Counted from the stretch's first letter, positions 3,204 to 64,000 are shown. The stretch is 64,000 nucleotides of DNA from a virus (IMGVR_UViG_3300037439_000116:4562-68561), one strand, 5' to 3'. Notes: a model not told the origin generated them from the letters alone. Numbers and translations are program-made.

Positions 3204-3219
3204 ACCGAGAGGATGAGGC

Positions 3220-4002: not shown

Positions 4003-4003
4003 C

Positions 4004-19129: not shown

Positions 19130-19554
19130 CCGAGGACGAGTTGGTCACCGCGATCATCGACATGGCCCGCCTGCTCGGCGTGACCACGGCGCACTTCCGC
19201 CCGGCCCGCGTGATCGACAGGGACGGCGCCACCCGCTGGGTTACTGCGGTCCAGGGTGACGGCAAGGGCTTCCCGGACCTCGTGCTGGCCGGCCCCGGCG
19301 GTGTCGCCTTCCGCGAGGTCAAGGTGGGCAGCAACAAGGCGACGCCGGAGCAGATGATCTGGTTGAGCGTGCTCACCTCCGCCGGCGCCGACGCCGCAAT
19401 CTGGCACGAGCGCGACTGGCACTCCGGCCGCATAGAGGACGAGTTGCGGGAGCTTGCGGGCAAACAACCCCGCAAACCCACCCCGCAACCCGATCCGCAA
19501 ACACCCCGCAAAGGCCCCGCATGGCTGAAGAATGGAGGGCGAGGAAATGGATGA
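19126..19554 (+). CDS. VRR-NUC domain nuclease (PD-(D/E)XK)
   Basis: GFPDLVLA...FREVK...TPEQMIWL. Confidence 0.85.
   Translation: MTEDELVTAIIDMARLLGVTTAHFRPARVIDRDGATRWVTAVQGDGKGFPDLVLAGPGGVAFREVKVGSNKATPEQMIWLSVLTSAGADAAIWHERDWHSGRIEDELRELAGKQPRKPTPQPDPQTPRKGPAWLKNGGRGNG
19444..19522. repeat. cluster of CCGCAA hexamers
   Basis: TTGCGG at 19444, 19454; CCGCAA at 19470, 19483, 19495, 19506; CCGCAT at 19517. Confidence 0.75.
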
Positions 19555-26536: not shown

Positions 26537-27040
26537 GTGAAGCCGGACCCCGGCAAGCGAGGAACGCCGCGCGAGATCACACACCCGCCGTCCCAGATGA
26601 TCGACGTGTACGACCGCGCTCGCAAGGCAGCCGAGATGCGCCGCGACGGACGGCCGTGGGACGAGGTCGCCGCCGAGTGTGGGTACGCCGGCAAGGGCGC
26701 GGCGTACAACGCCGTCCGGGCGCGCATGGTCGAAGCGCGCAGCCTGGCTTACGGCGAGGTGGAGCTGTACCGCGCCGAGTCGATCGAGCGGCTGGAGGCA
26801 CTGCTGGCCGCCGTCATGCCGATGGCGCTCAAGGCCAGCGAGAAGCACGTCGAGTCGGCCCGTCGCCTGATCAAGCAGATCAGCGACCTGCGTGGCGAGG
26901 CTCAGCCCGTCAAGGTGGAGATCGGGGAGAGCGATGTCGATCGACTTCTCCGAGAAGCTACGGCAGAGTTCGAACGACGAGCTGCAGAGCTTGATCGGCA
27001 AGCTGGCGGAACTCCAGAGGCTGCGCAGCCGGATCGGTGA
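26537..27040 (+). CDS. terS: terminase small subunit
   Basis: HTH AEMRRDGRPWDEVAAECGY; directly upstream of TerL. Confidence 0.75.
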   Translation: MKPDPGKRGTPREITHPPSQMIDVYDRARKAAEMRRDGRPWDEVAAECGYAGKGAAYNAVRARMVEARSLAYGEVELYRAESIERLEALLAAVMPMALKASEKHVESARRLIKQISDLRGEAQPVKVEIGESDVDRLLREATAEFERRAAELDRQAGGTPEAAQPDR

Positions 27041-37580: not shown

Positions 37581-38042
37581 ATGGGCAACCGTTACGAGGT
37601 CGGCCTCACGAAGGCAGGGGTCAACACCGCCAACACGGTGATGTGGGCCCTGCGCGCACCGACGCGCCGCACATGGCTGCATGAGCTGGGGATCTTCGTC
37701 GACACCGCGCCGACCACCGCGCCGCAGTTCGTGCTGGCCCGCAACACGGCGGGCACGATCACCAGCACCACGACCACCGGTGGTCAGCCCAACGTCCCCG
37801 AGGCATCGGCGTCTACGTCCACGCTGGACTCGGCATGGTCGGCCGCCCCGACCTTCACCACGACCGGGCCGTTCATGCGGCGCATCACCCTGCCGGTCAG
37901 CGCCGGGCAGGGCGTCATCTGGACGTGGCCCGAGGGGCTGGTCATCAACACGACCATCACGACCACGCTGGTCATCGCCAACGCGGTCGCCTCAGGTGCG
38001 ACGCTCGGCGCGTTCTCGATCTACGTCTCCTGGGACGAGTAG
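37581..38042 (+). CDS. beta-rich virion structural protein
   Basis: GGAGAGG RBS, Thr-rich 153 aa. Confidence 0.7.
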   Translation: MGNRYEVGLTKAGVNTANTVMWALRAPTRRTWLHELGIFVDTAPTTAPQFVLARNTAGTITSTTTTGGQPNVPEASASTSTLDSAWSAAPTFTTTGPFMRRITLPVSAGQGVIWTWPEGLVINTTITTTLVIANAVASGATLGAFSIYVSWDE

Positions 38043-38046
38043 CACC

Positions 38047-41000: not shown

Positions 41001-41541
41001 GGCTACCGCATCGATCGGCGCGCCGACGGCCCGGGCCGGAAGCTCGCCCGCGCCGGCCACCGTTGCGGGCGTGGCGTCTCTGCCCGCGCCCACTGTCCAA
41101 GCCGGGTCAGGAGCGGCACCCGCGCCGGCCACGATCAGCGCATCTGCCGCCGTCCCCGCGCCTTCGATCCAGACCACCTCGGGCAGTGTGGCCACGCCTG
41201 CCACGCTGGCTGTTTCGGCGGCGATGGCCGCGGCCATCGCACTCGCCTCCATGCGCGTCGGCGCCGTCACGCTGGCCGGCTCCGCAGCGTTCCCAGCGCC
41301 CGCCGTCCGGCTCGGCGTACTGCCCACACCGAGCACGCTGGCCACTTCGGCCGCGTTCGGTTCGGTGTCGCTCCGGCTGACGGCGACCGTGCTGGCCGGG
41401 ACCGTCACGGGGTTCGTGACCATCGGGCAGATCAGTCACATCGTGGGCGATGTCGAATCCGGCGCGCTCACGGCGGGGGTCACCGGCGACGAGGTGGCCG
41501 CTCGGGCCCTGAGCGATTCCATCGGAGCGAGGGTGACATGA
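38047..41541 (+). CDS. large virion appendage protein: half-FN3 units, PKD-like segment, N,N-dimethylformamidase beta-like (DUF6605) domain, Ala/Thr/Pro repeats
   Basis: YRLGWYGG, TWNAYNAWGG, VSYNRP, EYPMVRFLERNGYDV, GHNEYWS motifs; about a dozen PATxAxVAAxP repeats. Confidence 0.8.
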   Translation: MAFASGSSRATPGGLARSVIVGTQPRTGRVAAAPTPDGGSTFSTGEQAWIVSAAGTTATLTGLTPGSSYQVRVRAVDAAGNASAWSDEITVTAQSDPAPITVAAVAAFPTATAIVPGAVPATIAAAATFPAVAAGVVRTFTAAGTTATATGLTASRNYTATVRARDAAGNWSAWSAPVPFTTTGGGVAGPSTISGVAAFPSASIGGTPPTVTAGRARPVVSLGAVVLDVTATPPGGTTIIGYSWTILSGGGSLTNATTATPTYTAPAGSGTASIQAAVMTANAGRATATVTVAYAPTVVAAENALTGTARASWDLASPNLGGISTLQGFVDGFSVDKSGTVNFKIAQSDAAGWAAEVYRLGWYGGDGARSYGTLTPSGGQVTASQAQASPADADPGTTLISADCAGWSTTLTWTPPAWAPSGIYVLRLNRTGGGASHVMFVLRDDARAAELMLMPSDSTWNAYNAWGGMGGSMYSGNSLYYGTAVDQYNGDCARFVSYNRPVVNRGAADSGRTYGAVEWSTFFTGEYPMVRFLERNGYDVKYYSCLDAAGDPLGTHLTGEAGSGRAGAGAAMFVGHNEYWSDSMRSGWERAKNRGVSVFSCAGNEVFWRTYGTNPDGDGRPRTFECQKSTIGGRGNTRPQWTGTWRDPDGAGKGGDSPENTLTGTIFAVNGPDLRALVVPFAGGYSAEPIWRHTSVASLTTGQTWTSPSQILGFEWDVPGPAFVSTTAASYMAAPHARVRYCSTVTYSVSSGLLLTDAGDVYDASGTATHRLVVHPGGAGAIAFGTGTINWALGLDDANTYQQGSDNTSDVIRQATVNVLMDMGAGPATLMSGLTTPTPVDWYPDVPVTTIAAVAAFPAVGLGSGALPAPATLAAVAAVPAVTIRRTALATPATVAGVAAFPAVTFRSAATVTPATVAAVASIPAVSVQTASGSTAAPGTLTGVAALAGTAVTGSTLAPATIVGVAALPVPTVTTATGAAPATIVATASIGAPTARAGSSPAPATVAGVASLPAPTVQAGSGAAPAPATISASAAVPAPSIQTTSGSVATPATLAVSAAMAAAIALASMRVGAVTLAGSAAFPAPAVRLGVLPTPSTLATSAAFGSVSLRLTATVLAGTVTGFVTIGQISHIVGDVESGALTAGVTGDEVAARALSDSIGARVT

Positions 41542-51443: not shown

Positions 51444-53044
51444 GCCTCACCATCCCGCTCGCCGTCCGACTGTCGGCCACCAAGGGCGGCGGGCACGTCA
51501 CACGCGACCTGCACGACCTGTCGTTCCGGTCGGTGGTCCCGGGCGGCTACGCGTCCGCGTCCTTCTCGCTGTCCCGGCCGCTCGGCATCCAGCCGGACGA
51601 GATCATGGAGTACGGCAAGGTCGTCGTCTACGACCGGCGCACGGGAGGAACGGTCTGGGAAGGGCGGCTCGAAGACCCGGGCCGCTCGGCGGGCGACGGT
51701 GGGGAGATCTGGCAGATCACCGCGACCGGGCCGGCCACGTACGCCGAGGACCGCACCATCAGCCTGATCTACGTCGACAGCGGCCTCGGCGGCTGGAAGG
51801 TCGGCACCGACTCCATCCCCTCGGTGGACATCCAGATCAGCGAGGACGCCATCAAGATGGGCGTGGCCATGGGCACCACGCACCGGGCCGGATACGCGGG
51901 TCTCGCGGTCTACCACTCGATCGCCTACACCGAGCAGGAACTCGCCCGCGTCCGGGTGACCTTCGTGCCGACGTTCACCTCCATCAACTACGAGTCGTGG
52001 CTCGGCACCTCGATCGGCAACGGCGGCACGACCAACCTCGCGCAGACGGCGATCCTGGGCACCAACACCCAGACCATCGCCCGCGGCGGCGTCACCGCTA
52101 TCCCGGCCGGACACGACACGGTGCGGCTCCGGTTCGTCCGCATGGTCAGCAACATCACGCCGTCCGACGACCTGATCACGTGCCAGTGGTTCCCTGTCGT
52201 CCTCGGGCTGCTCAAGGACGAGAACGGTACCGACATCGTCTCCGGCTACGCCGCGAACACCGTGCTCGCCTCGACGATCATCCGCGACCTGCTCGGGCGG
52301 CTGCTGGACCGGTTCGACGGGGCGGCGGCCAGCATCGAGACCACCTCCGTGGCGATCGACCAGCTCGCGTACCCGGACGGTGCGTCTGCAGCCAAGGTGC
52401 TTGAGGATCTGATGCTGCTCGAACCGGCCTACTACTGGGCGGCGTGGGAGACGCTGGACAGCGGGAAGCATCGGTTCGAGTGGAAGTCGTGGCCCACGAC
52501 GGTGCGGTACGACGCCAGCGTCGTGGACGGGTTCGACTCGCCGGCGGCGACGGGCGAGGTCTACAACGCGGTCACCGTGCGCTGGCTCGACGGTGTCGGC
52601 ACGTCCCGGATCGTGCGGCAGACGCAGACCATCGCCACGCTGTCGGCCGCCGGGATCACCCGCGAGGCGTTCATCGACATCAGCGACGAGGTCGGCTCGG
52701 CGGCCAACGCCGCGCAGGTCGCTGCCACGTTCCTCGCTGCGCATCAGGCACCGATGAACCAGGGCACTCTCACCGTGTCGCGACCCATCATGGATCTCCA
52801 AGCAGGGCGGGCCGTCCAGCCGTGGGAGATCAAGCCCGGCAACTTGATCCGGGTGCGCAACGTACTGCCGCGGATCGACACGCTCAATGCCACCGGCCGT
52901 GACGGCATCACCGTCTTCAAGGTCGCGGCCGTGGAGTTCAACGCCGCCTCGGCGTCGGCCACCTTGGAACTGGACTCCTACCCGATGACCGTGGCCCGGG
53001 CCGTGGCCGAACTGTCCAAGCGGAAGATCACCAGGAAGCGGTGA
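51440..53044 (+). CDS. minor tail / tail hub protein
   Basis: PGGYASASFSL, VWEGRLE, IKPGNLIRV. Confidence 0.8.
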   Translation: MSLTIPLAVRLSATKGGGHVTRDLHDLSFRSVVPGGYASASFSLSRPLGIQPDEIMEYGKVVVYDRRTGGTVWEGRLEDPGRSAGDGGEIWQITATGPATYAEDRTISLIYVDSGLGGWKVGTDSIPSVDIQISEDAIKMGVAMGTTHRAGYAGLAVYHSIAYTEQELARVRVTFVPTFTSINYESWLGTSIGNGGTTNLAQTAILGTNTQTIARGGVTAIPAGHDTVRLRFVRMVSNITPSDDLITCQWFPVVLGLLKDENGTDIVSGYAANTVLASTIIRDLLGRLLDRFDGAAASIETTSVAIDQLAYPDGASAAKVLEDLMLLEPAYYWAAWETLDSGKHRFEWKSWPTTVRYDASVVDGFDSPAATGEVYNAVTVRWLDGVGTSRIVRQTQTIATLSAAGITREAFIDISDEVGSAANAAQVAATFLAAHQAPMNQGTLTVSRPIMDLQAGRAVQPWEIKPGNLIRVRNVLPRIDTLNATGRDGITVFKVAAVEFNAASASATLELDSYPMTVARAVAELSKRKITRKR

Positions 53045-53045
53045 C

Positions 53046-53375
53046 ATGACTCAGCCCATCCCCGTCGCACCCGGCGTCATCGCCGACGTGTCCGTGCTCG
53101 TGCTCTCGGTCAACGAGGGGACGCAGCAGGCGTCCATCCGGGTGATCGACAACAACGGCGGGTTCCTGACCGTCGCCGTGTCCCTGCCGCTCGGCGTGAT
53201 CAAGCCGAAGTCGTTCCAGGTCGTCGTCGGCGACGTGCTCGAATCGACGGACGGTAAACAGATCACCGGCTTGGTCCGCTGGACCGACGGGCTGATGTGG
53301 TCGCCGTCGCCGTCCGGGGTGCCCGCCAACCAGACGACCGGGTGGCGCAAGCTCGGCAACTTCGTGATCCCGTGA
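53046..53375 (+). CDS. hypothetical protein
   Basis: 109 aa between tail and lysin. Confidence 0.65.
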   Translation: MTQPIPVAPGVIADVSVLVLSVNEGTQQASIRVIDNNGGFLTVAVSLPLGVIKPKSFQVVVGDVLESTDGKQITGLVRWTDGLMWSPSPSGVPANQTTGWRKLGNFVIP

Positions 53376-54916
53376 CCATCCACCTCGGCGACGTCGCCAG
53401 CTACCAGGGCAGCATCGGCATCGACCAGCTACGCGCGGCCGGGTTCGGTATCAACCTCAAGGTGTCGCACGGGCTCGGGTCCAAGTCGGTACACCCGTCG
53501 GTGGCCGCCCTGGCCGCGGTGGCACGGGCGGTCGGGATGCCGATCAGCACCTTCCACTGGCTGGACGCGTCGGCGTCGGGCGAGGAACAAGCCGAGTACG
53601 CGTACCGGCGGCTGACGCAGTTCGGGCTGGCGATCGGCACCGTGCATCAGCTGGACGTGGAGGCTCAACCGGCGCCCCCGCTGGCCTCGGTGCGGGGTTA
53701 CCTGAAACGGATGACCGCGCTGCTCGGGCGGCCGGTCGTGCTCTACACCGGCGACTGGTGGTGGGTGCCGCGCGGATGGGATGTGTCCGACCTGACGCCC
53801 TACCTGTGGTCGGCGCCGAACGCCGGTTATCTCGGCAGTTACCCGGGCGACTCGTCGCAGCACTGGCGCGCCGGCTACGGCGGGTGGGCCGACCTGACCG
53901 TCATGCAGTACGCCGTCAAGGAGCTGCCGGGCACGTCGATCAAAGTCAGCATGAGCGCCGTGCGCGACGAGGATGCGTGGCGCGTGCTCACGGGGAAAGG
54001 AGAGAGAGTGTCGTACTCACCGGACAGGATCGCCGAGGCGCGCCGGTTCGTGATGGACACGCTGCGCTCGGCGGGCGAGGACGTGAATCCCGCCTCGTTC
54101 GGCGTCATCGGCGACGACTCGCACGCCAACGCCGGGACCGGCTACCACCTCGGCAAAGACGCACTCAAGAGCAACGCCTACTCGATCGTGGAGTCCAGCC
54201 GCGACCGCAACGGGCTGACCAACGCGGCGGCGGCGTTCGACTGGGGCGCCTTCTCGATCACCGTCAAAGGCAAGCGGCACGACCTCAAGAGCATGAGCCT
54301 CTGGATGGTCGCGCAGTGCAAGGCCAATGCCCCGGACACCCGGGACATCCGGGAGATCATCTACTCGCCCGACGGCCGGACCGTCAAGCGCTGGGACGAC
54401 CTCGGCATCCGCACGACCGGCGACTCGTCGCACACCTCGCACACGCACTTCTCGTGGTACCGCGACTCCGAGAAGCGCGACAAGACGGCGCTGTTCCGGC
54501 GCTACTTCACCGAGATCGGACTACTGGAGGAACCCGACATGCCCATCGACGACAACGACGTGATCACGCTGGCGACCTCGAAGCTGTGGCCGACGCCCGC
54601 GCCGCTACAGGACAGCGTCGGTCCGAAGATCAGCCTTCAGGACCTGCTCGTGCGCACGTTCCTGCGGGCCGAGGGCGCGAACAACACGGCGATGGCGCTG
54701 CGGACGGCGTTCAGCGCGTTCGTCGCGGCCGAGCAGGGCGACGACGCGGCCAAGGCTGCGGCGCTGGCTCAGCTCAAGGCGGACATCGCCGCCGTTCCAG
54801 CCGACGTACTGGACGGCCTCGGCGGATCGCAGCAGTCCGACGCCGAGCTGGCCACGGCCCTGCGCGCCGCGCTCGGTGCCCGGGCGGCGGCCGTCGGGGC
54901 GCTGCTTCAGGAGTGA
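53372..54916 (+). CDS. multidomain endolysin: GH25 muramidase + M15-like peptidase + helical C-terminus
   Basis: GDVASYQG, LKVSHG, QLDVE, LYTG, MQY (GH25); GDDSH..GYH..AAAFD..SHTSHTHFS (Zn peptidase). Confidence 0.85.
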   Translation: MTIHLGDVASYQGSIGIDQLRAAGFGINLKVSHGLGSKSVHPSVAALAAVARAVGMPISTFHWLDASASGEEQAEYAYRRLTQFGLAIGTVHQLDVEAQPAPPLASVRGYLKRMTALLGRPVVLYTGDWWWVPRGWDVSDLTPYLWSAPNAGYLGSYPGDSSQHWRAGYGGWADLTVMQYAVKELPGTSIKVSMSAVRDEDAWRVLTGKGERVSYSPDRIAEARRFVMDTLRSAGEDVNPASFGVIGDDSHANAGTGYHLGKDALKSNAYSIVESSRDRNGLTNAAAAFDWGAFSITVKGKRHDLKSMSLWMVAQCKANAPDTRDIREIIYSPDGRTVKRWDDLGIRTTGDSSHTSHTHFSWYRDSEKRDKTALFRRYFTEIGLLEEPDMPIDDNDVITLATSKLWPTPAPLQDSVGPKISLQDLLVRTFLRAEGANNTAMALRTAFSAFVAAEQGDDAAKAAALAQLKADIAAVPADVLDGLGGSQQSDAELATALRAALGARAAAVGALLQE

Positions 54917-55323
54917 ACGCCCGGAAGCTGTGGCGATCCCTGCGCAAGCGCATCGGCGTGCGGGGGGACGTGCTGCTTGCCTTGGGCGTGATCGATATTG
55001 CGCAGGCGGTCTCGCTGATCCGCGGTGACCCCGGCGCGTCCTACGACTGGTTCGGCTCGGTCATCCCGCTGCCCGCGTGGGCGGCACTCTGGTTCAGCGC
55101 GGCGGCAGTCATCATCTACCACGCCTTCCGCGAGGACGACCACATCGGCTACGTCGCCGCTGTAGGGATCAAGCTGGTCTGGGGTGTCGGCTGCTTCGCC
55201 GCGTGGCTGCTGGCCGACGTGACCGCTCTCGGCGGGGTCTTCTGGCTCATGCTCAGCGTGGTGATCTGGCGGGTTGCCGGATGGCTCGCCCGGGTCGACC
55301 TGAGCGAAAACGGCCAACCATGA
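54913..55323 (+). CDS. multi-pass membrane protein, holin candidate
   Basis: about 4 hydrophobic helices, coupled to lysin. Confidence 0.65.
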   Translation: MNARKLWRSLRKRIGVRGDVLLALGVIDIAQAVSLIRGDPGASYDWFGSVIPLPAWAALWFSAAAVIIYHAFREDDHIGYVAAVGIKLVWGVGCFAAWLLADVTALGGVFWLMLSVVIWRVAGWLARVDLSENGQP

Positions 55324-55706
55324 CGATCGAGATACGCGACCTGATCACGGCGGCGTCGGTCCTCGTCGCGCTGTTCGGGATGCTGCTGGTCAACCGCAAC
55401 GCGAAGCGGGCCCTGCGGCCGGCGGCGGAGAACACCGACCTCACGCGCATCCGGGACCTGCGGGCCGAGCGGGCCGAGATCAAGCAGGAGCTCACCGAGA
55501 CCAGGCAGGAGCTGGAGCTGGTCCGCAACCAGGTCCACCGGCTCAGCATGCAGGTCGAGGAAGCGAGCAACGCGGCTACGCAGGCGTACCGCGACCGGCA
55601 AGAGATGATCCGCTTCGCGCAGATGCCGGGGGTGACGATCGACGATTGGCTGCGCCATTTTGATCGGCCGCCGCCCGAGACCCCGGCGGCGGTCGATAGA
55701 GGATAA
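55320..55706 (+). CDS. membrane-anchored coiled-coil lysis-region protein
   Basis: N-terminal TM followed by heptad repeats. Confidence 0.7.
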   Translation: MTIEIRDLITAASVLVALFGMLLVNRNAKRALRPAAENTDLTRIRDLRAERAEIKQELTETRQELELVRNQVHRLSMQVEEASNAATQAYRDRQEMIRFAQMPGVTIDDWLRHFDRPPPETPAAVDRG

Positions 55707-55713
55707 TTGATCC

Positions 55714-56328
55714 ATGACGATCCGGCCCGAGGCCTTCGACTCACTCCTCTCGATCCAGGAACGCGGAGACCGCGACTGGACGCTGCTCGCTCCTCTGATC
55801 TGGGAGGGCACCAAGGGCGCGCGCTTCGTCGTGCCCGTCGGCTTCGTGACCGACTTCGCCACCGTCCCACGGATCATGCACTGGAAGGTCAGCCCCTACG
55901 GCCCGTACACCCGGGCCGCCGTGTTGCATGACTGGCTGCTTGACCAGCTGGCCGAGTGGCACAAGGTCAACCCCCTCGGGGGGCGAGAGAGCTACAAGCG
56001 CCCCGAGCCGCCGGCGAACTCGCGCGACGTGGACGGGATCTTCCGCCGAGCCATGGAAGACCTCGGAGTCCGGTGGGACCGGCGGTGGGTGATGTGGGCT
56101 GCGGTCCGGTGGGGCGCGCTGTTCAACTCGCGGCGGGCGTACGGGCGTGACTTCCACAAGGACCTGCCGCGCGTGCTGGCCATCTCGCTGCTCATGCTCG
56201 TGACCACCTCGCCCGGCGCGATCGGGGTGCTCATCTCGCTCAGCTTCGAGAAGGCGGCGAACATCGCGCACCTGCTCTTCACCAAGCTCAGTGGCCGGCA
56301 GAGCGCCGGTCCTGCTGAAAGGATCTGA
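55714..56328 (+). CDS. DUF1353-family protein
   Basis: VPVGFVTDFATVPR, AAVLHDWL, DGIFRRAM, MWAAVRWG. Confidence 0.85.
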   Translation: MTIRPEAFDSLLSIQERGDRDWTLLAPLIWEGTKGARFVVPVGFVTDFATVPRIMHWKVSPYGPYTRAAVLHDWLLDQLAEWHKVNPLGGRESYKRPEPPANSRDVDGIFRRAMEDLGVRWDRRWVMWAAVRWGALFNSRRAYGRDFHKDLPRVLAISLLMLVTTSPGAIGVLISLSFEKAANIAHLLFTKLSGRQSAGPAERI

Positions 56329-56330
56329 CC

Positions 56331-56567
56331 ATGGACCACGTCAACGCTCCGGCGGACGGTCGCAAGCGGCTGTTCCGGGACTCGAAGTTCGGCAACATCC
56401 TCAACGGCGCTGCGGTCGCCGCCGCGCTCTACATCGCCGACGCCGTATCCGGCCTGGACGTGACGGCGCTGCCCGACGTGCTGGAGCCGGTCGCCTTCGG
56501 CGTCGTCGGCACGGTCGTCGGCCTGCTCGTCTCGTGGGCTACCTCGCGCCGGGAGCCCACGAGCTAG
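56331..56567 (+). CDS. small membrane protein, holin candidate
   Basis: two hydrophobic helices, last + strand gene. Confidence 0.65.
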   Translation: MDHVNAPADGRKRLFRDSKFGNILNGAAVAAALYIADAVSGLDVTALPDVLEPVAFGVVGTVVGLLVSWATSRREPTS

Positions 56568-56607
56568 CGGACCGCCATCCGCGAGTCCGGTCCACCCGTC
56601 CGGGCGC

Positions 56608-56650
56608 AGAACGGCCCCGCCTCCTTTTCGGGAGCGCGGGGCCGTTTTCT
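56608..56650. terminator. terminator between converging late and right-arm transcripts
   Basis: AGAACGGCCCCGC...GCGGGGCCGTTTTCT hairpin. Confidence 0.75.
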
Positions 56651-56660
56651 GTATGCGCAG

Positions 56661-57101
56661 CTAGTGGCGGCAGCCCTTGCAGTGGACGGCGATGCCGGGG
56701 CAGGCGCCAGAGTGACCGGCGCGGTTGACCAGGAGCAGGCCGAGGACGATGAGGATGACGCCGAAGCCGACGATGCTGGAGAGGTTGACGCCGGAGAGGG
56801 CGCTGGATAGGGCGAGGAAGATGCCGGTGCCGGCCAGGATCACGAAGGCCGCGACCGCGCCGACGAAGGCCAGGGCCTTGCCGATCTCGCCGGCCACGGT
56901 CGGCCGCTTCAGCTTGGGGGCGACGGGGCGGGACTCGCGGACGGTGGCAGTCATCATGTAGCGGCCCGAGCTGAGCTCGGTCGCAGCGGTGAAGCGAACC
57001 AGGCTGCCGGACGCCGTCGCCTTGGACACGTATTCGGCCAGCTGGCTCGCGGTGCCGACGACGGGCCGCTCGACGGCGACCATCTCGGTGCTGCTCTTCA
57101 T
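56661..57101 (-). CDS. membrane protein with C-terminal Cys/His motif
   Basis: two hydrophobic helices; CPGIAVHCKGCRH; AGGAG RBS. Confidence 0.7.
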   Translation of the reverse strand: MKSSTEMVAVERPVVGTASQLAEYVSKATASGSLVRFTAATELSSGRYMMTATVRESRPVAPKLKRPTVAGEIGKALAFVGAVAAFVILAGTGIFLALSSALSGVNLSSIVGFGVILIVLGLLLVNRAGHSGACPGIAVHCKGCRH

Positions 57102-57124
57102 GCTGTCTCCTATCGGTTAGCCAT

Positions 57125-57154
57125 ACTGTACCCACGACCGTTGCCGATCCGCAA
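57125..57154 (-). promoter_or_regulatory. leftward promoter with GTGGGTACAGT box
   Basis: Minus strand TTGCGG-N18-TACAGT; box at 57125-57135. Confidence 0.7.
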
Positions 57155-57156
57155 GA

Positions 57157-57184
57157 AGGCGCCCACCCCGCGGGGTGGGCGCCT
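57157..57184. terminator. terminator hairpin ending the tra operon
   Basis: AGGCGCCCACCCC-GC-GGGGTGGGCGCCT, 13-bp perfect stem. Confidence 0.7.
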
Positions 57185-57201
57185 CTGTGTTGCGTGGTGA
57201 A

Positions 57202-57573
57202 TCAGATGGCGGCGATGGTGGCCGCGATGAGCATGAGCCACGCGCCGACGAAGACGATGGCCTTGACGATGACCAGCGGGAGACTCGGGTAGCTGGTCCG
57301 GCCGGGCCGGTAGGCGATGGCGGTCAGCAGCAGGAGCCCCACGAAGCAGTAGATCGACCACGAGGGCGGGCCGGCGAAGTCACCGACCGCCATGTCCCGG
57401 ACCACGGTCCAGGCCTTGTAGAGGATCCAGCCGATTGCCGCCGCGGCGGCACCAAGGGCCGTCGGCACCATGCCGTAGCGCTTGAAGGTGTACCAGCCCG
57501 CGTGGTTGCGGCCGAACTTCTCGGCCGCCGCCTTCTCGGCCGCTTCGTTCCATTGCTCCTTGGTCAGGGCCAT
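57202..57573 (-). CDS. multi-pass membrane protein (Spd-like candidate)
   Basis: three hydrophobic helices; last gene of operon containing traB. Confidence 0.65.
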   Translation of the reverse strand: MALTKEQWNEAAEKAAAEKFGRNHAGWYTFKRYGMVPTALGAAAAAIGWILYKAWTVVRDMAVGDFAGPPSWSIYCFVGLLLLTAIAYRPGRTSYPSLPLVIVKAIVFVGAWLMLIAATIAAI

Positions 57574-57599
57574 CGTCTCTCCTCGGTCGCTCGCGCTTA

Positions 57600-57965
57600 T
57601 TACAGCACGAAGCCCCCCGACCCCTGCCCGTTCGCGGCCTGGTCCGCCTTGTGCCGCAGCACCGACGCGCAGTGCGCGACCGAGCCCATGTTGCTGGAGA
57701 TGTTCTTCAGGTCGTCCGCCGCAGCCACCATGGCCGAGCGGATGCGGTCGATGGAGGCGACGATCGAGCCGACGTACTCACCGACGACGGACTCCGGGAT
57801 GCCCTTCGCCCGAGCGGACGTGGTCAGGCGATTCTCAAGGTCGTCGTGCAGCAGGTTCTCCCACTCGACGCCTTCGTCGATCAGCTTGTTGCGGAGGTTC
57901 AGGAGGCGGGAGTCGGACGCCTCGGCGAAATTGATCAGGGCCTGACTGGAGCGGATCTTCGACAT
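57600..57965 (-). CDS. helical protein, TraA-like size
   Basis: GGAG RBS, all-alpha 121 aa. Confidence 0.7.
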   Translation of the reverse strand: MSKIRSSQALINFAEASDSRLLNLRNKLIDEGVEWENLLHDDLENRLTTSARAKGIPESVVGEYVGSIVASIDRIRSAMVAAADDLKNISSNMGSVAHCASVLRHKADQAANGQGSGGFVL

Positions 57966-57974
57966 GTTCGTCTC

Positions 57975-58304
57975 CTAGAGGTCGAAGGAATCGGACGTGG
58001 ACTCGCGCGCCTTACGGGCCGCATTGCGGCAGCTGTCGAATGCCGCAGCGGCCGAACTGAGGGCCCCGAAAAGGCCCGCGGCGTTCGAGTGCGCGCGGCT
58101 CAGGTGGTCGCTGAGAGTGGCCATCATCTGATTTGCCTTGGCGACAGGCACGCCCGAGGAAATCATCTCCCGCTCGATGGCGTCGAACACGCTCGCCCAT
58201 CCCGTGTTGCCCAGAAGAATGCGGATCGGCTCAACCACCCCCGTCATTTCCGCCAGCGTGCTCGTCATGGCCTTGGCTGTTCTCGGTACGGATACCGTGT
58301 CCAT
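57975..58304 (-). CDS. helical protein, TraA-like size
   Basis: GAGGA RBS, all-alpha 109 aa. Confidence 0.7.
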   Translation of the reverse strand: MDTVSVPRTAKAMTSTLAEMTGVVEPIRILLGNTGWASVFDAIEREMISSGVPVAKANQMMATLSDHLSRAHSNAAGLFGALSSAAAAFDSCRNAARKARESTSDSFDL

Positions 58305-58557
58305 CTTGGGTCCTCTCGGTGATGGTGTGGATCTTCTTCAGCACCTGCTCTGCGAGCCCCGCAACTTGAGCTGCGGGCCCCGCAAGCTCCTCGGCCGCGT
58401 CGAGCGCCTCCCCCGCAAGCCGGTCCGCAACTTCGGGGTCGCAACCTGCCCGCAAAAGTGCGGCCGTCCAGTCCGCAACCTGCTCGGCGTCCGGGACCGT
58501 GTAGCGGGTTGCGGCCACCCGCAAAAAGGCGGCCGCAACTTCGGCCTCGGAGGTCAC
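58231..58557 (-). CDS. hypothetical Ala-rich protein
   Basis: GTGA coupling to traA-like stop; carries CCGCAA repeats. Confidence 0.55.
   Translation of the reverse strand: MTSEAEVAAAFLRVAATRYTVPDAEQVADWTAALLRAGCDPEVADRLAGEALDAAEELAGPAAQVAGLAEQVLKKIHTITERTQDGHGIRTENSQGHDEHAGGNDGGG
58359..58538. repeat. dense CCGCAA repeat cluster
   Basis: CCGCAA at 58359, 58380, 58413, 58425, 58450, 58473, 58519, 58533; TCGCAA at 58439; inverted TTGCGG at 58509. Confidence 0.8.
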
Positions 58558-58904
58558 TTGCCGGCGTCGAACCGGCCGGCGTGCTGGCCTGCGGCTGCGG
58601 GCGCAAACGTGCCCTCGAAGATCGTGTTCGCTCGGGTGAGGGCGACGGCCGCAGCGATCTGCGAGGCGGCCGAATGGTTCAGGTGGTAGGCGATCTGGAT
58701 GGCCGCGATCCGGAGGTCGGCACCCATCCAGCCCTTCCGGCCCCGGACGTTCGTAGCCTTCGGGAGCTCCTTGCGCAGGACGGCGGCGACCGCCTGGAGG
58801 CTGCCCGCGTTGCCGTTGAACTCGGCCCGGACGTCGGCGACCATGGCCTCCCACTCGCTCGTGTTGGACGGGGTGATGATCCCCGAGTAGCCCGTACTGC
58901 TCAT
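58554..58904 (-). CDS. plasmid transfer protein TraA-like
   Basis: All-alpha 116 aa right after traB; IAYHLNHSAASQIAAAVAL..ANTIFEGTF resembles Streptomyces plasmid TraA C-terminus. Confidence 0.5.
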   Translation of the reverse strand: MSSTGYSGIITPSNTSEWEAMVADVRAEFNGNAGSLQAVAAVLRKELPKATNVRGRKGWMGADLRIAAIQIAYHLNHSAASQIAAAVALTRANTIFEGTFAPAAAGQHAGRFDAGK

Positions 58905-58915
58905 GTCTCGTCTCC

Positions 58916-59058
58916 TGTCAGATAGTCCGCTTGTATACGATCCGTTACCGTCGGGTCCTGTCAGATAGCAGGTGTCAGATGTCAGATGGCAGGGTGTCAG
59001 ATCCAAATCCCCTATAGGCAGAGAGATCCACGCGGCCTGTCAGGTGTCAGCTGACACC
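58916..59058. repeat. TGTCAG(A/G/C)T 8-mer array, clt-like candidate
   Basis: TGTCAGAT at 58916, 58959, 58973, 58980, 58995; TGTCAGGT 59038; TGTCAGCT 59045; palindrome GGTGTCAGCTGACACC 59043-59058. Confidence 0.8.
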
Positions 59059-59065
59059 CTCACGA

Positions 59066-61411
59066 TCAGTGATCACGCTTCAGCCGGTACTTTCCCTTCG
59101 TCCGACCGAGGTCCGGAGCGGGCATCAGCGTCTTGCCGCCATCGAGTTCGATCTCCCCGAGAGCAGCCTGCTGGAAGCTCTCGATGAACCACGGCCGGCT
59201 CCGGTAGGGGTACCGATCGACCACCAAGCTGACCGTGATGACGACCGTCCGACCCGTCGGGTCGGCCGGATCGCGCAGGGCCTCGTCGGCGAGCAGTTCG
59301 TCGAACGACTTGTTCAGCGCGACCAGTGCAGCCGCCCGGTCCCGCGGTGCCGGCTTGTCGTCGCCCCAGGAGACGTCCGCGGCACCGGTCTTCAGTGGCT
59401 CGGTCGCCTGGCTCATATTGCCGCGCTCGCCCGTCACCGGGTCCGGGGGGTACAGGTCGATGCCGTCCACGTTCTTCGCCTCCCGCAAGTTCTGCTTCAT
59501 GTCCTCCGCGACCTCTGCGGGGTCCTCGTCCGCAAAGTCGAACCCGTCATCGTCGTCCGGCACAGCGGCCGCCCGTCGACCTGCGGTCCGCAACTCCTCC
59601 GCATACTCGTCTCCCTCGTTCTCGGTTTGCGGGGTGTTTGCGGGGTCGGTTTGCGGGGTCCCCTGCTGGAGCAGGACGGCCCGGATGCGCTCCGTCTCGG
59701 CCACGGCGTTGTGCCACCAAATGGTGCCGTCGTCCTGTCGGGTCGCCATGACCGAACCCTGATCGAGCTTGGCCATCCGCGGTGCCCATTCGAGGTTCCG
59801 CTTCAGCATCTTCTCGACGAGGACGTCCTTGTCCTCGTCGCCAAAGGTGCGGTTCGGAACGGGGAACATCTCCTCGTCGATCCCAAGGCCTTCGACGTAG
59901 AAATAGCCGGGCTTGCGGGCCTTCCAATAGTCGGGTCGCGCACCTGCCTTAATGGTCGGCTCGCTGAGCGCGAAAATGGCGGACTGGTCGTCGCTCGTGC
60001 CGAAGCAGAGCGAGGTGCCGAGGTTGAATCGCAGGCCGGTCGGCATCTGCGTGTGGTCGGCACGCTGCATGGAGAAGCCGATGACGATGCCGAGGCTCAG
60101 GCACTTGCTGGCGATCGTCTGGCAGCGGAAGCCGTCGGACTGCAGGATCGAGTCCGCCTCGCCGACGTGCACGATCAGCTCGGGCATGGGCTCCATCTGC
60201 TCGCGCCGGCCCGCCTCGTTGGTGCGCCACTTCGGCTCGTGGAAGCAGTCCTTCACCGAGTAGGCCGAGATGCCGAACCGGCCGAGCTGGGCCTGGCGGT
60301 ACTTCATGATCTTCTCGACCTGCGTGAAGGCTGCGCGGTACTCGCCGCCCGTGTCGCCGTCGGCCTCGATGACCGCGACCTCGGTGACGGGGCAGACGGG
60401 ACGCAGATCCTGCATGCCCTTGCTCTTGTTGAGGTAGAGGATCACGTCGTCGCGACGGGTGCCGAACTCGGTGAGCATGGTGTTCTCGCCGACGGTCTTG
60501 CCCGCGCGGGACATCCCCATGAACAGGTAGTTGGACGGGGCCGTGATGTCGGTGGGCGTCTTGGGTCCGCCCGGTCCACCGACGTAGATCGTGACCTTCG
60601 TGCCCATGGCCGAGACGGCGATCACGGCGCCGTCGGCCACGGAGCCGCCGGGGCTGGACGGCTCGGGGAGCATCTGCTTCTTGATCAGCGGGTCGGTATG
60701 CATCAGGCGGAGCTTGCTGCGGTCGGCGCGGTCGCCACCGGTCGCGGTGGACATGCCGCCGGGCGAGCCGGTGGAGGACTCGATGTTGGCCTTGGCGTCC
60801 TGCAAGGTCTCCACGGTGTCGCCGTCGGCGTGGTCGAACTCGACCTCGGTGGCGATGAGCTCCCCGTCGTCGCCGTGGATCGGCTTGATGCTGCGGGCCT
60901 TCCAGCCCTTGAGCTTCTTGAGCCAGTCCGGGCCGTCCTTCTCGGCCTCGTCGCTCTTGTCATTGCGGGTGACGTCCAGACGGGCGATGGACCACGTCAC
61001 GGCGACGAGCCAGCCGGCGAGGATGAACAGGCCGGACCATAGCCAGCTCACGCCGACGCCGGCGTTGATGGCGAACAGCAGACCGAGCGCTGAGACGGAG
61101 CCGGCCAGGGCCGCCTGCTTGCCGCGCTCGCGGTGCTTGGCGAAGTCCCACGCCAGCGTGGACAGGCCGACGGTGGCCAGCACGAAGAAGGTGTTGGCGA
61201 GCAGGGGGGCGGCGGGGCTGGTCTTGACCGTCCAGTCGAGCGGGCCCCAGTGCAGGTCGACGCCGTGGGTCCAGACGTAGATCAGCCACGCGACGGGCAG
61301 GCCGGTGAACGGGGCGAGGAACAGGCCGAGGAAGCGGTGCGGCTGGTCGTGGACCTTGCGGCTACCGCCGCGCTCAGTGCTGGTCGTCGTGGTCTTCGTG
61401 CGCGTGGCCAT
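59066..61411 (-). CDS. traB: TraB-like FtsK/SpoIIIE conjugative DNA translocase
   Basis: N-terminal TM helices; GMSRAGKT Walker A; LSLGIVIGFSMQRADHTQMPT, GARPDYWKARKPGYFY; C-terminal wHTH with RSRPW. Confidence 0.85.
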   Translation of the reverse strand: MATRTKTTTTSTERGGSRKVHDQPHRFLGLFLAPFTGLPVAWLIYVWTHGVDLHWGPLDWTVKTSPAAPLLANTFFVLATVGLSTLAWDFAKHRERGKQAALAGSVSALGLLFAINAGVGVSWLWSGLFILAGWLVAVTWSIARLDVTRNDKSDEAEKDGPDWLKKLKGWKARSIKPIHGDDGELIATEVEFDHADGDTVETLQDAKANIESSTGSPGGMSTATGGDRADRSKLRLMHTDPLIKKQMLPEPSSPGGSVADGAVIAVSAMGTKVTIYVGGPGGPKTPTDITAPSNYLFMGMSRAGKTVGENTMLTEFGTRRDDVILYLNKSKGMQDLRPVCPVTEVAVIEADGDTGGEYRAAFTQVEKIMKYRQAQLGRFGISAYSVKDCFHEPKWRTNEAGRREQMEPMPELIVHVGEADSILQSDGFRCQTIASKCLSLGIVIGFSMQRADHTQMPTGLRFNLGTSLCFGTSDDQSAIFALSEPTIKAGARPDYWKARKPGYFYVEGLGIDEEMFPVPNRTFGDEDKDVLVEKMLKRNLEWAPRMAKLDQGSVMATRQDDGTIWWHNAVAETERIRAVLLQQGTPQTDPANTPQTENEGDEYAEELRTAGRRAAAVPDDDDGFDFADEDPAEVAEDMKQNLREAKNVDGIDLYPPDPVTGERGNMSQATEPLKTGAADVSWGDDKPAPRDRAAALVALNKSFDELLADEALRDPADPTGRTVVITVSLVVDRYPYRSRPWFIESFQQAALGEIELDGGKTLMPAPDLGRTKGKYRLKRDH
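59588..59658. repeat. CCCCGCAAA repeats inside traB
   Basis: TTTGCGGGG at 59626, 59637, 59650; CCGCAA at 59588. Confidence 0.7.
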
Positions 61412-61598
61412 CGGTGCCTCCTTCCAGGAACGAGCGGACGTCGGACTCGCGGACGCGGTGATGGCCGCCGGGGGTCGGGGTGGACGCGACACGGCCGGCG
61501 CGGATCCACCGGGCCACAGTGGCCGTATCGACCCTGAACAGCGCGCCGACCTCGGCCGTGGTCAGCAGCCGATCGCCGCCGAGCAGGTCGTCACCCAC
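61374..61598 (-). CDS. BldC/excisionase-family MerR-like HTH protein
   Basis: LLTTAEVGALFRVDTATVARWIRAGRVASTPTPGGHHRVRESDV closely follows the BldC pattern. Confidence 0.85.
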   Translation of the reverse strand: MGDDLLGGDRLLTTAEVGALFRVDTATVARWIRAGRVASTPTPGGHHRVRESDVRSFLEGGTDGHAHEDHDDQH

Positions 61599-61815
61599 GG
61601 TGGGTGTTCCGTTCCGCGGCGTACAGGATGCTGCCGATCTCGTGGGCTTCCCAGTCGGTCAGCCGCGCGGGGATCAGGTGGCCATCATCGTTGCGCACGT
61701 CAAACAGGACGGCGCCCGAGACCACGGTCACCCGCGCGGTGCCTCCGGCCTCCAGCGCCACACTCGCGGTATACGTCGGCTTCTCACCGGTATAGATCAA
61801 TTCGTCGCTCATCAT
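61591..61815 (-). CDS. small hypothetical protein
   Basis: GAGGAG RBS; first gene of tra operon. Confidence 0.65.
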   Translation of the reverse strand: MMSDELIYTGEKPTYTASVALEAGGTARVTVVSGAVLFDVRNDDGHLIPARLTDWEAHEIGSILYAAERNTHRG

Positions 61816-61884
61816 CTCTCCTCTCGTCTTACGCAGTCTATCGCGTCCGTGCGCGCCGTGCACGCCATGTCCGTTTTCTGGCAC

Positions 61885-61913
61885 GAAAAAGCCCCGCCGT
61901 CGCGGCGGGGCTC
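61885..61913 (-). terminator. intrinsic terminator
   Basis: Minus strand GAGCCCCGCCG-loop-CGGCGGGGCT followed by TTTTC. Confidence 0.75.
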
Positions 61914-61930
61914 GATCGGTCTGGCTTGGG

Positions 61931-62071
61931 TCAGGCGGCGAGTGCGTCGACGCCCGGGCAGGTTCCGTGCGGCGCATGGCTCAGGCCCATGCGGCGGGCG
62001 CGGCACGCCTCGGCGAGCGGCTGGCGGGCGATCATCCGGACTGCGCGACGGGGGCTGGTCTTGACGCTCAT
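61931..62071 (-). CDS. small basic protein
   Basis: 46 aa between promoter box and terminator, GGAG RBS. Confidence 0.5.
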   Translation of the reverse strand: MSVKTSPRRAVRMIARQPLAEACRARRMGLSHAPHGTCPGVDALAA

Positions 62072-62101
62072 CTCGGTTCTCCATCTCTCGGCTGTGTCTC
62101 T

Positions 62102-62137
62102 ACTGTACCCACAGTAGGCCGGAGGGCGCAAGGGTCA
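62102..62137 (-). promoter_or_regulatory. leftward promoter with GTGGGTACAGT box
   Basis: Minus strand TTGCGC-N18-TACAGT, also TTGACC-N16-TACTGT; box at 62102-62112. Confidence 0.7.
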
Positions 62138-62887
62138 ACGGGTGAGTTTCTTGACGGCCTTCGACGTGCGCCAGAAGGTGACCCACGCGAGCGCCACGCC
62201 GATCGCTGGCGGGAGCCACCACGTGACCGAGGGCCAGGGCAGGTGCATGTTCACCACGACGCGGGCGGCGAGGTAGGTGAAGACCGCGGCGAGGAGCAGG
62301 ACCGCGACCACGCGCCATGCGGTTCGCCGCCGGCGGGCGGCCTCACGAGCCCGGCGCTGCTGCTCGCGCGCAGACACGGGTCGCGGACGGGCCGGCTGTG
62401 GAGCCACACGGTGGCGCGGCACCGGGCGGGGCTGCTCACCGAATGGGCGGACTGGGCGGACGCCGTTGTGGATCGTCTTCTTGCGGTCGATCCAATCGGC
62501 CTCGGCGCGGCGTAGTGCTGCCTCATCCGCTTCGGGGTCGCCGGTGACATAGACCCGTTCGAGGATGCGCCAGCCGTCGCGGCCGGGAAGGATGTCCGCC
62601 TTCCACGGGTCACGGGCGACGGACTGGGCGCTGGTGTGCGCGCTGGCGCTGGAGCCGTGCACGCGCTCCTGCACCGCCTTCGGCGTCGGGCCGACGCACT
62701 TGCCGACGTAGGCCGAAGTGCCCGGCGCCTGACCGCGCGTCTTGAGCTCGTAGACGAAGCCGAAGATCGGGCGGCGAGCGCGGCGGTCGGCGACTACGCG
62801 CGACTCGGTCGTGTGACCGGCCCACGGGTCGGCCGGGACGCCCCGGACGACAGGTGCGTCGCCGGGGCCCCAGAACGCCTGCGTCAT
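62135..62887 (-). CDS. GIY-YIG-like nuclease domain with C-terminal transmembrane helices
   Basis: GFVYEL...AYVGK...ERVH...AEADWI..KK..HN; two C-terminal hydrophobic helices. Confidence 0.6.
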   Translation of the reverse strand: MTQAFWGPGDAPVVRGVPADPWAGHTTESRVVADRRARRPIFGFVYELKTRGQAPGTSAYVGKCVGPTPKAVQERVHGSSASAHTSAQSVARDPWKADILPGRDGWRILERVYVTGDPEADEAALRRAEADWIDRKKTIHNGVRPVRPFGEQPRPVPRHRVAPQPARPRPVSAREQQRRAREAARRRRTAWRVVAVLLLAAVFTYLAARVVVNMHLPWPSVTWWLPPAIGVALAWVTFWRTSKAVKKLTR

Positions 62888-63279
62888 GACAGGTCCGCCA
62901 GCGACGCTTGCGCCGTGACGACCGCCTGACGGATCGTCTCCAGATCGGTCAGCACGGCGTCCAGGTCGTCGGTGCCGCCCCGCAGTCGGGTCTTCTCGAT
63001 TGCCCACAGCACCTCGCCGCGGGCGTGGTTCAGCTTCCGACGCCGGGCGGCATGCGCCAGTTCTGCGTCATCGGGAGCGACGAGGAGAAGGCGAGCGGAG
63101 TCGTACTGGTCCTTGCCGAACTCTGACAGGTCGTCCAGCCGGAAGCGGATCTCCTGGCGAGACGCACAGGACACGACGACCTGCGTCTTGGTGGCGCGCC
63201 AGCCGGTGATCGGCTGGACGACGGTGCGCCTCCGGTTGGTCACGACCGCGTTGGCGATCCAGTTCGGGACGGTGGTCAT
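62884..63279 (-). CDS. hypothetical protein
   Basis: 131 aa, GGAGG RBS, ATGA coupling. Confidence 0.7.
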   Translation of the reverse strand: MTTVPNWIANAVVTNRRRTVVQPITGWRATKTQVVVSCASRQEIRFRLDDLSEFGKDQYDSARLLLVAPDDAELAHAARRRKLNHARGEVLWAIEKTRLRGGTDDLDAVLTDLETIRQAVVTAQASLADLS

Positions 63280-63282
63280 GGA

Positions 63283-63582
63283 TCAGCCCTCCAGGTCGGT
63301 GAGGTAGGAGATGGAGCAGGAGTTCCAGGTCATCGAGCGGTAGCGGGGGAGCGCCTCGATCGCGTCGGCCAGCGCGCGGGCGTCGGTGCCCTCGGGGAAC
63401 GTGATCACGGTGCGAATGCGCTCGGTCAGGTCCGTGGCGTACGCGCGGTCCGAGGCGATGGTGGCCGGCGCGGGCGAGAACATCAGGTGGCGCCGAACCA
63501 GCAGGCGAGCCGTCTTGGTCGCCTCGGCGAGCGGGCTGACCTTGCGGGCCTTGCTCTTGACGGTGCGTCCGCTGGTGTACAT
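63283..63582 (-). CDS. hypothetical protein
   Basis: 99 aa, GAGAG RBS. Confidence 0.65.
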   Translation of the reverse strand: MYTSGRTVKSKARKVSPLAEATKTARLLVRRHLMFSPAPATIASDRAYATDLTERIRTVITFPEGTDARALADAIEALPRYRSMTWNSCSISYLTDLEG

Positions 63583-63612
63583 CGGGTGCTCGCTCTCTCT
63601 TGGTGTGCCTTA

Positions 63613-63642
63613 ACTGTACCTACACTAACGCCCGGAGCGCAA
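63613..63642 (-). promoter_or_regulatory. leftward promoter with variant box GTAGGTACAGT
   Basis: Minus strand TTGCGC-N18-TACAGT; box at 63613-63623. Confidence 0.65.
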
Positions 63643-63667
63643 GCCCCGGGCGCGGTGTGGCACGTTC

Positions 63668-63943
63668 CTACTTCCGACAGTGGTGGCCGGCGTCGTGCTT
63701 GCCCCACGTCCGGCAGCCAGCGTCGACGCAGCGGCGGCACTGGTCGACATGGGCGGCGGCGAACTGCCGGGCGTCGGCCAGGGCGAAGCGCTCGCGCGAG
63801 TCGGTGAGCATGTCGTCGATCGGGCCGAACGGGTCGTAGGCCGGGGTGCAGCCCGCGCAGTAGGCGGCGACCGAGCCGTCGTCGCGCTGGACGAGTTCCA
63901 CGCGGGCGGTCAGGTTGTCGTTGTAGACGAACAGGCGGGCCAT
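63668..63943 (-). CDS. small Cys-rich hypothetical protein
   Basis: CAGC, CRRC, C..W..H motifs; GGAG RBS. Confidence 0.7.
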   Translation of the reverse strand: MARLFVYNDNLTARVELVQRDDGSVAAYCAGCTPAYDPFGPIDDMLTDSRERFALADARQFAAAHVDQCRRCVDAGCRTWGKHDAGHHCRK

Positions 63944-63952
63944 GGCGCTCTC

Positions 63953-64000
63953 CTACGAGGCGGAGTGGACGGCGGCGACCAGGCTCATCGGGGTGGTGGG
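63953..64000 (-). CDS. partial CDS (3' end only)
   Basis: open frame entering from the window edge and ending TAG at 63953. Confidence 0.35.
   Translation of the reverse strand, partial: PTTPMSLVAAVHSAS

Follow-up and report, generated by a model that had tools for sequence, protein, structure and literature searches.

The 64,000-nucleotide stretch of DNA analysed here, which we call the window, comprises bases 4562-68561 of the 68,561-bp IMG/VR virus record IMGVR_UViG_3300037439_000116. The record holds the complete genome of an uncultivated, siphovirus-like phage of a high-GC actinomycete, and a homologue of the plasmid transfer protein TraB, followed by an array of short repeats resembling the clt sites of Streptomyces plasmids, forms an integral and conserved part of its genome. 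As judged from sequence, the balance tips slightly towards these elements constituting a functional TraB-clt module, which would move the double-stranded phage genome between hyphal compartments or hyphae. An earlier note on this DNA had placed a conjugation module at 56661-61815, and the leftward genes that it described are indeed there: a helix-turn-helix (HTH) protein, a 781-aa TraB with the motif GMSRAGKT, a repeat array, helical open reading frames (ORFs), and membrane proteins. The limits that it gave were too narrow. Rightward genes occupy 1-56567. The leftward arm, probably an early one with the noted stretch as its core, covers everything from 56661 to the end of the window and continues, across the closure of the circle, into record bases 1-4373, the place where transcription diverges.

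The traB gene (59066-61411, on the minus strand like all the arm genes mentioned below) encodes a predicted membrane-anchored FtsK-like translocase of double-stranded DNA, with a C-terminal winged helix, belonging to a distant subfamily of the plasmid TraB proteins. It matches the NCBIfam profile NF041214 (plasmid_TraB; E 2.2e-65, 221.4 bits), with residues 69-651 aligned to positions 33-554 of the 639 of the profile, as well as phrog_24831 and the FtsK-like phrog_1358, and a Pfam search of the protein gave no match, PF01580 included. With tblastn, 49 plasmids were recovered at 24-32% identity, 44 of them from Streptomyces, with matches mostly annotated as traB, and no record was found among 50,697 phage genomes. 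BLASTP aligned the protein with the TraB of pJV1, pCQ3, a Streptomyces longwoodensis plasmid, and a Thermobispora plasmid (1e-27 to 1e-38), and gave no match with the chromosomal FtsK and EccC of an actinomycete genome. A quick maximum-likelihood tree places FtsK at the end of a very long branch and the plasmid TraBs within the sequences of the phage lineage. By these comparisons, the window protein is a TraB homologue, not an FtsK, in agreement with what the earlier note had proposed.

The predicted architecture of the protein is consistent with this assignment. An AlphaFold2 model (pLDDT 75.5) has four transmembrane (TM) helices between residues 24 and 150, in agreement with four hydrophobic segments in the N-terminus, followed by a motor domain at about 170-580, a disordered linker at 585-690, and a C-terminal domain at 692-780. 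The motor superposes on FtsK (6t8g/2ius; Foldseek E 2e-13, TMt 0.63-0.66) and on the coupling protein TcpA, and no change is seen among 20 homologues of 34-67% identity at G304, K305, and T306 of its Walker A motif or at E418 and D420. When modelled in isolation, the C-terminal domain reaches a pLDDT of 81 with an H-E-H-H-E-E topology, and its sequence aligns with the C-termini of plasmid TraBs. At the putative recognition helix, the phage lineage has RSRPWF, pCQ3 has RSRSWIS, and the S. longwoodensis plasmid has LSRPWVS; we count this resemblance, to plasmid TraBs that have the same repeat word, in favour of a transfer function.

These repeats make up the clt-like array (58905-59065, minus strand), which fills the roughly 160 bp from the traB stop to the next gene. 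It begins just after the stop with the perfect 16-bp palindrome GGTGTCAGCTGACACC, continues with a TATAGGGG box, and contains six further direct repeats of the form (T)CTGACA(C/G/T). Eight of the 19 CTGACA[CGT] sites of the window fall in this array, which has eight CTGACA copies in 150 nt against a maximum of three per 150 nt in 200 shuffles. The same layout follows traB in the related loci L004-L008, L031, L033, and L034, and in Rhizomonospora (L009), with the variant CCTGACGC in L007. The traB 3' ends of known conjugative plasmids served as a positive control: this position is occupied by CTGACAC/TGACACC arrays in pCQ3 and in the plasmids of S. longwoodensis (-14 to +87 relative to the traB stop) and Thermobispora (+17 to +117), and pJV1 shows its known CCGCACA repeats. 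The clt of pWTY27 takes in the 159 bp next to the tra gene and 16 bp of the gene itself, and footprints show protection by the Tra protein of the four TGACACC repeats within it (PMC3583192). The phage array contains this very word. The strongest argument for a clt thus combines the same word in the same place on plasmids, the pWTY27 footprint, and the aligned C-terminal recognition helix, and from it we infer that the array is a candidate clt, on which TraB would dock.

A second array (58359-58540, minus strand) has about 8-10 copies of CCGCAA/TTGCGG inside a possible small ORF, with seven per 300 nt against 0.26 expected. A CCGCAA pile (7-10 copies) is also found at 19443-19525, in an intergenic position, and that of the relatives lies in the linker-coding region of traB (11731-11980 in L006, from 11728 in L007, from 11650 in L008, and from 11670 plus 12699 in L004). 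The word resembles the pJV1 clt repeat CCGCACA.

The arm shares a promoter-like box with the rest of the genome. The word GTGGGTACAGT occurs in the window at six exact sites and one with a single mismatch, against 0.59 expected, and in eight exact copies in the whole genome. The window sites are 4632(-), 4656(+), 16464(+), 44759(-), 57125(-), 62102(-), and 63613(-), to which record positions 436(-) and 3322(-) are added. Each of them lies 22-30 nt ahead of a ribosome-binding site and start codon, in the orientation of the gene, with the exception of 4632(-), where neither is evident. Sites 4632 and 4656 form a divergent pair, the leftward copy of which has no obvious gene. The copy at 62102-62112 (minus strand) heads the HTH-traB operon, others head further arm genes and the rightward genes at 4656 and 16464, and GGGTACAGT recurs upstream of traB in four relatives (L004-L007). 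Ahead of the last membrane protein gene, a composite element (57125-57184, minus strand) joins a perfect hairpin with 14-bp arms (57157-57184) to the box at 57125-57135. TACAGT presumably corresponds to an actinomycete -10 element. The box is thus promoter-like and common to both arms, and its distribution suggests that the leftward arm is wired like the other non-structural genes of this phage; its presence in both arms and its conservation in the relatives agree with the single regulated element that had been proposed.

That the packaging, head, tail, and lysis genes belong to the same element as traB was likewise borne out. PHROG profiles identify the large terminase subunit (TerL; 2.5e-83), the portal (5.7e-56), a protease fusion (1.7e-70), the major head protein (5.3e-74), a 1277-aa tape measure protein (5.6e-77), an endolysin (2.5e-11), and, weakly, Dit, together with a replication and recombination set made of a RecE-like exonuclease, a DnaQ-like exonuclease, an Erf-like annealing protein, and a helicase, and with two DNA methyltransferases, a beta-clamp-like (DnaN-like) protein, and a primase-polymerase. 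IMG/VR classes the record as having direct terminal repeats, with a CheckV completeness of 100. An exact 127-bp repeat is common to both record ends, which gives a closed circle of 68,434 bp of unique length; because of its length, we take the repeat to be the assembler overlap of a circular path rather than a physical terminal repeat. The G+C content ranges from 0.66 to 0.73 across the window, and the leftward arm shows no compositional break. The nearest capsid proteins among isolated phages are those of Gordonia phages (54% identity), and a megablast of 25 kb against the 50,697 phage records gave no nucleotide match.

A metagenome assembly is the source of this sequence, and the arm could in principle be a fragment of a plasmid or of an actinomycete integrative and conjugative element (AICE), either joined to the phage by misassembly or lying beside it as a neighbouring island. 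The only sequencing run containing the sequence is a sediment metagenome, probably the source run, and it therefore adds no independent evidence on habitat or virions. Many short joints with sides of 20-22 nt, met when Logan contigs were aligned, were disregarded as unrelated contigs. Against an artefact, an independent 55,160-bp Logan contig from this run covers 52421-64000 with no differences and an even depth of about 42-50, bridging the lysis genes and the arm, the circle is closed, the promoter box is shared, and synteny is maintained in five relatives and two more loci, with TraBs at 39-51% identity. The contig, the circle, and the synteny together exclude misassembly and the idea of two neighbours, to which we grant only a vanishing probability; an assembly artefact and an independent AICE were among the alternatives that the earlier note had considered damaging to its proposal.

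The conservation of the module was assessed from the gene context of relatives in IMG/VR and in genome and metagenome scans. A search of 5.8 billion proteins with TraB returned 65 hits at 33-65% identity, 63 of which cover at least 92% of the query; 64 are metagenomic, and the single NCBI-sourced one was later found to be a metagenome contig as well. For many of these homologues the contig is 64-71 kb long. Scanning viral contigs with a single protein gave no hit. Five IMG/VR records of 65.6-70.6 kb, two with terminal repeats and all with a completeness of 96-100, carry TraB at 39-51% identity together with TerL (64-76%) and the capsid protein (75-79%), so that the co-occurrence of traB and terL, suggested earlier as a check, is found throughout these relatives. 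The order of the arm is also kept, with 114-, 257-, 356-, and 290-aa proteins, the HTH protein, TraB, a 116-aa protein, and membrane proteins, then the convergent genes for a DUF1353 protein and lysis. Two further metagenomic loci have the HTH gene, traB, the array, and the 116-aa gene in the same order, on to the endolysin. These observations support the view of TraB and the clt-like array as an integral part of a complete tailed-phage genome. The one isolate with a related locus is Rhizomonospora bruguierae NBRC 107566, of the Micromonosporaceae (NZ_BBQH01000056.1, 22999-37819), where genes for a membrane protein, a TraB (34% identity), and the 116-aa protein occur together, traB being followed by a palindrome and by CTGACAC/CCGACAG repeats. 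The capsid protein of the window was not found in the Rhizomonospora genome, and the TerL-like gene there lies on another contig, so this TraB copy is not established as phage-borne; it could still indicate the host range of the module.

If the module works as its plasmid counterparts do, host RNA polymerase would transcribe the arm from the -10-like GGGTACAGT promoters, the same box preceding some early replication genes. TraB would then insert in the membrane at hyphal contacts or septal cross-walls, and its winged helix would dock on the repeat array of the double-stranded phage genome. The motor would pump the phage DNA into the neighbouring compartment or hypha, where replication would be possible, thereby providing a virion-independent route of spread alongside infection by particles. 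The transferred DNA may be either the infecting genome or a persisting episome, both options being left by the failure to find lysogeny or partition genes. A more specific version of this mechanism, which we put forward as a doubtful though possible one, is that a non-lysogenic lineage uses the TraB-clt pump and its own membrane partners as a "movement" system, which would push replicating phage genomes across cross-walls or hyphal contacts with no need for virions, receptors, or lysis.

Several points weigh against a transfer function. The function is deduced from homology and conserved position, and the mycelial host is presumed. The 221 bits of TraB are far under the 800-bit equivalog cut-off of NF041214, so that the protein is to be read as a homologue, not as an equivalog. 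The 50 best VIA matches of its C-terminal domain are nearly all winged-helix proteins, but with a Z of only 5.1-6.4, and Foldseek with the isolated domain gave no significant match. The array lies between the TATAGGGG box and the ribosome-binding site of the next gene, and could therefore be an operator for the adjacent HTH protein, while the second conserved array, of CCGCAA words, competes with it as a TraB site. No recognisable SpdB2 (DUF2637) or TraA was found with Pfam and hhalign. Finally, the searches for integrase, ParA, and ParB were negative and no maintenance gene of the Rep type was seen, RepA itself not having been searched for. A recipient might then simply be killed, which makes the "conjugation" of a stable element doubtful.

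The rival explanations differ mainly in what the pump would be for. The element could be a conjugative plasmid-prophage, extrachromosomal or integrated in the manner of pZL12, whose TraB-clt would transfer the resident element, with later spread through the mycelium. Elements of exactly this kind are pZL12 and pCQ3 (PMC4487206, PMC3583192, and the pCQ3 gene order given below), and the circular assembly, the excisionase-family HTH protein upstream of traB, and an antitoxin-like gene with a Panacea domain in the arm would fit with it. However, six-frame profile searches of five complete genomes of the lineage, with positive controls, found no tyrosine integrase (PF00589), serine recombinase (PF00239), ParB (PF02195), or ParA (PF13614 and PF01656), and no repressor was recognised, whereas pZL12-type elements carry ParAB (PMC4487206). 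The 127-bp end repeat, which looks like an assembler overlap, is uninformative on a plasmid state. We therefore regard a plasmid-prophage as unlikely, and the transfer of a "prophage" that the earlier note envisaged is not supported by these searches. The lack of a partition system could instead be turned into an argument for vertical segregation, in which the FtsK-like pump would clear or drive phage DNA through septa as they close, into spore compartments for example, and spores would then carry the genome: such a phage would have use for a different segregation device, TraB is a relative of FtsK/SpoIIIE, and FtsK-like genes with no known role are common in actinophages. Nevertheless, the protein groups with conjugative TraB and not with septal FtsK, the array matches plasmid clt words, and a companion membrane protein is common to a plasmid tra region, all of which makes this explanation quite improbable.

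The remaining alternatives concern the repeats themselves. Since the CTGACAC word is also present on Streptomyces and Thermobispora plasmids, the phage could be engaged in cross-talk with resident plasmids or AICEs, being mobilised by a resident TraB or using its own to block or hijack them; alternatively, the repeats would be an HTH operator for the downstream gene. BldC/Xis-type proteins bind direct repeats, and the array occupies the 5' region of the gene that follows, behind a conserved TATAGGGG box. Against these readings, the phage keeps a full-length TraB of its own with invariant ATPase motifs, PADLOC gave no defence-system match beyond a weak HTH (mad1) and an SspH fragment, and on plasmids the arrays of this word are placed at the 3' end of traB, the position to which the pWTY27 clt was mapped. 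Taken together, cross-talk and operator are very unlikely in our judgement, and the TraB-clt transfer of the phage genome is the explanation that we prefer.

A tailed phage with a tra locus is a kind of element already known. The Streptomyces plasmid-phage pZL12/phiZL12, with a conjugal transfer locus, has been described experimentally (Zhong et al. 2010, J Bacteriol 192:3747, as related in PMC4487206 and PMC3583192), and pCQ3 (NC_013449.1), an 85.5-kb Streptomyces plasmid, carries traA-traB with a terminase within 4 kb, and then capsid, tape-measure, and tail genes. Because of pZL12 and pCQ3, the hybrid is less novel than previously held. As in the pZL12 type, a single replicon here bears both a tra locus and the genes for virion structure and packaging. 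The phage differs from pCQ3 in its TraB, only about 31% identical over part of the length, and in its capsid protein, which is unrelated at E 1e-5; and it differs from both elements in its smaller genome (68 vs 85-90 kb), in having no traA homologue, ParAB, or integrase that we could find, and in being known only from metagenomes.

The phage resembles the TraB-clt systems of Streptomyces (pSVH1, pWTY27, pJV1) in several respects: its TraB is predicted to consist of a TM anchor, then an FtsK-like motor, then a winged helix; short direct repeats form an array at the 3' end of the tra gene; the 7-mer TGACACC is identical to the footprinted DC1 repeat of pWTY27; and the C-terminal helix is homologous to that of the plasmid TraBs. 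Contrary to these systems, its TraB falls below the equivalog score and is phage-borne, a BldC/Xis-type HTH protein stands in the place of a GntR-type Kor/TraR regulator, and, compared with plasmids bearing Spd proteins, it has no recognisable SpdB2/DUF2637. An AICE is a small element bounded by att sites and equipped with an integrase; here neither PF00589 nor PF00239 had a match, and the arm lies within a phage genome that closes into a 68-kb circle. The closest likeness among phages is to the FtsK/SpoIIIE-like proteins of actinophages and Bacillus phages (phrog_1358), which are also phage-borne ATPases of the FtsK superfamily, but these match in the motor domain only, if at all; a plasmid TraB query against isolated phages likewise gave partial motor-domain matches only. 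No clt-type array for such phage proteins was reported in the literature searched. FtsK-like genes are listed in many Streptomyces phages with no role given, and Thoma et al. (2015, PMC4447253) raised the possibility that phage DNA is spread by the Spd homologues of actinophages.

Were the transfer function real, the spread of phages in mycelial actinomycetes would not be limited to particles, and this would affect the understanding of plaques, developmental containment, receptor resistance, and gene flow. The movement system proposed above would even be a bacterial counterpart of the cell-to-cell movement of plant viruses, with infection advancing through a multicellular bacterium. This lineage offers a clean case. 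Its module belongs to the core genome and is kept in at least ten genomes or loci; the reading is not clouded by genes for lysogeny or partition, none having been found; and since the docking word is one already footprinted in a plasmid, assays of binding and transfer can be planned straight from the sequence. Many FtsK-like genes of actinophages are unexplained, and for some of them at least this case supplies a concrete hypothesis.

Besides TraB and the cis array, the module has companion genes that accompany traB, namely those of a BldC/Xis-type HTH protein, a 116-aa protein, and several membrane proteins. Directly upstream of traB, and overlapping its start, lies the gene of a MerR/Xis-type HTH protein resembling the BldC family (61374-61598), 49-60% identical in all relatives, which matches Pfam HTH_17 (5.8e-11), the BldC profile NF033787 (2.6e-18, under the cut-off), and the excisionase profile TIGR01764 (2.4e-7). 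It is preceded by the gene of a 73-aa protein (61591-61812; homologues in L008 and L031) and that of a 290-aa protein with a C-terminal TM segment (62135-63007), conserved in five of the five IMG/VR relatives and with no family match. Further small arm genes follow at 63283-64000, and the arm goes on into record 1-4373. Directly downstream of the array, the conserved 116-aa protein (58554-58904) has homologues after traB in L004-L007, L009, L031, L033, and L034, and no family match in Pfam, PHROG, or NCBIfam. Next come a poorly conserved 109-aa ORF (57975-58304), with no homologue in the relatives, and a 121-aa soluble protein (57600-57965) with high G+C at third codon positions and a weak match in L005 only. 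The last two genes encode a 123-aa membrane protein with hydrophobic segments (57202-57573; homologues in L004, L005, L006, L008, L031, and L033) and a 146-aa protein with two C-terminal TM segments (56661-57101; homologues in L004, L005, and L008), convergent with the lysis cassette; neither has a family match in Pfam or NCBIfam.

Two of the identities proposed earlier for these companions found no support. The gene called TraA-like gives 8.4% with hhalign against plasmid TraA and no NCBIfam match, and in plasmids traA lies upstream of traB. As for the membrane proteins read as Spd, no profile matches were obtained, and only the upstream 356-aa multi-TM protein (record 536-1606, minus strand, outside the window) has a plasmid homologue beside traB: it aligns with the ORF adjoining traB on the Thermobispora plasmid (hhalign 99.3%, E 1.2e-20), and a homologue also lies beside traB in Rhizomonospora. 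No meaningful family emerged when six copies of this protein, three of the 290-aa one, and the neighbour from Thermobispora were searched against Pfam to E 1. An SpdB2/DUF2637 assignment of the 356-aa protein was a language-model lead only, not confirmed by profile searches (hhalign 0.3% against a plasmid DUF2637 protein, and no Pfam match for five homologues either).

Some other features of this genome are worth recording. No tRNA genes were found in it. A 154-aa protein of the arm, encoded beyond the window at record 3397-3861(-), matches Panacea, a SocA-like antitoxin domain, over a short stretch (E 6e-7), and may be part of a toxin-antitoxin or anti-defence pair. The 882-aa TerL (26892-29540) contains a segment (residues 112-434, 27225-28193) that is missing from the 549-572-aa TerL frames of five relatives and that matches LAGLIDADG_3 (1e-10), Hom_end, and, weakly, Hint_2; given this absence and these matches, it is probably an intein with a homing endonuclease. 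The terminase region of pCQ3 is likewise split, by an HNH gene. Between the head and tape measure genes, a very long G+C-rich ORF of up to 1286 aa (37681-41541) has a weak tail-fibre match (7.7e-7), gene calls being uncertain there. Lastly, the DUF1353 protein (55714-56328; 1.3e-27), encoded between the endolysin and the arm, has a C-terminal TM segment and is about 60% conserved in the relatives.

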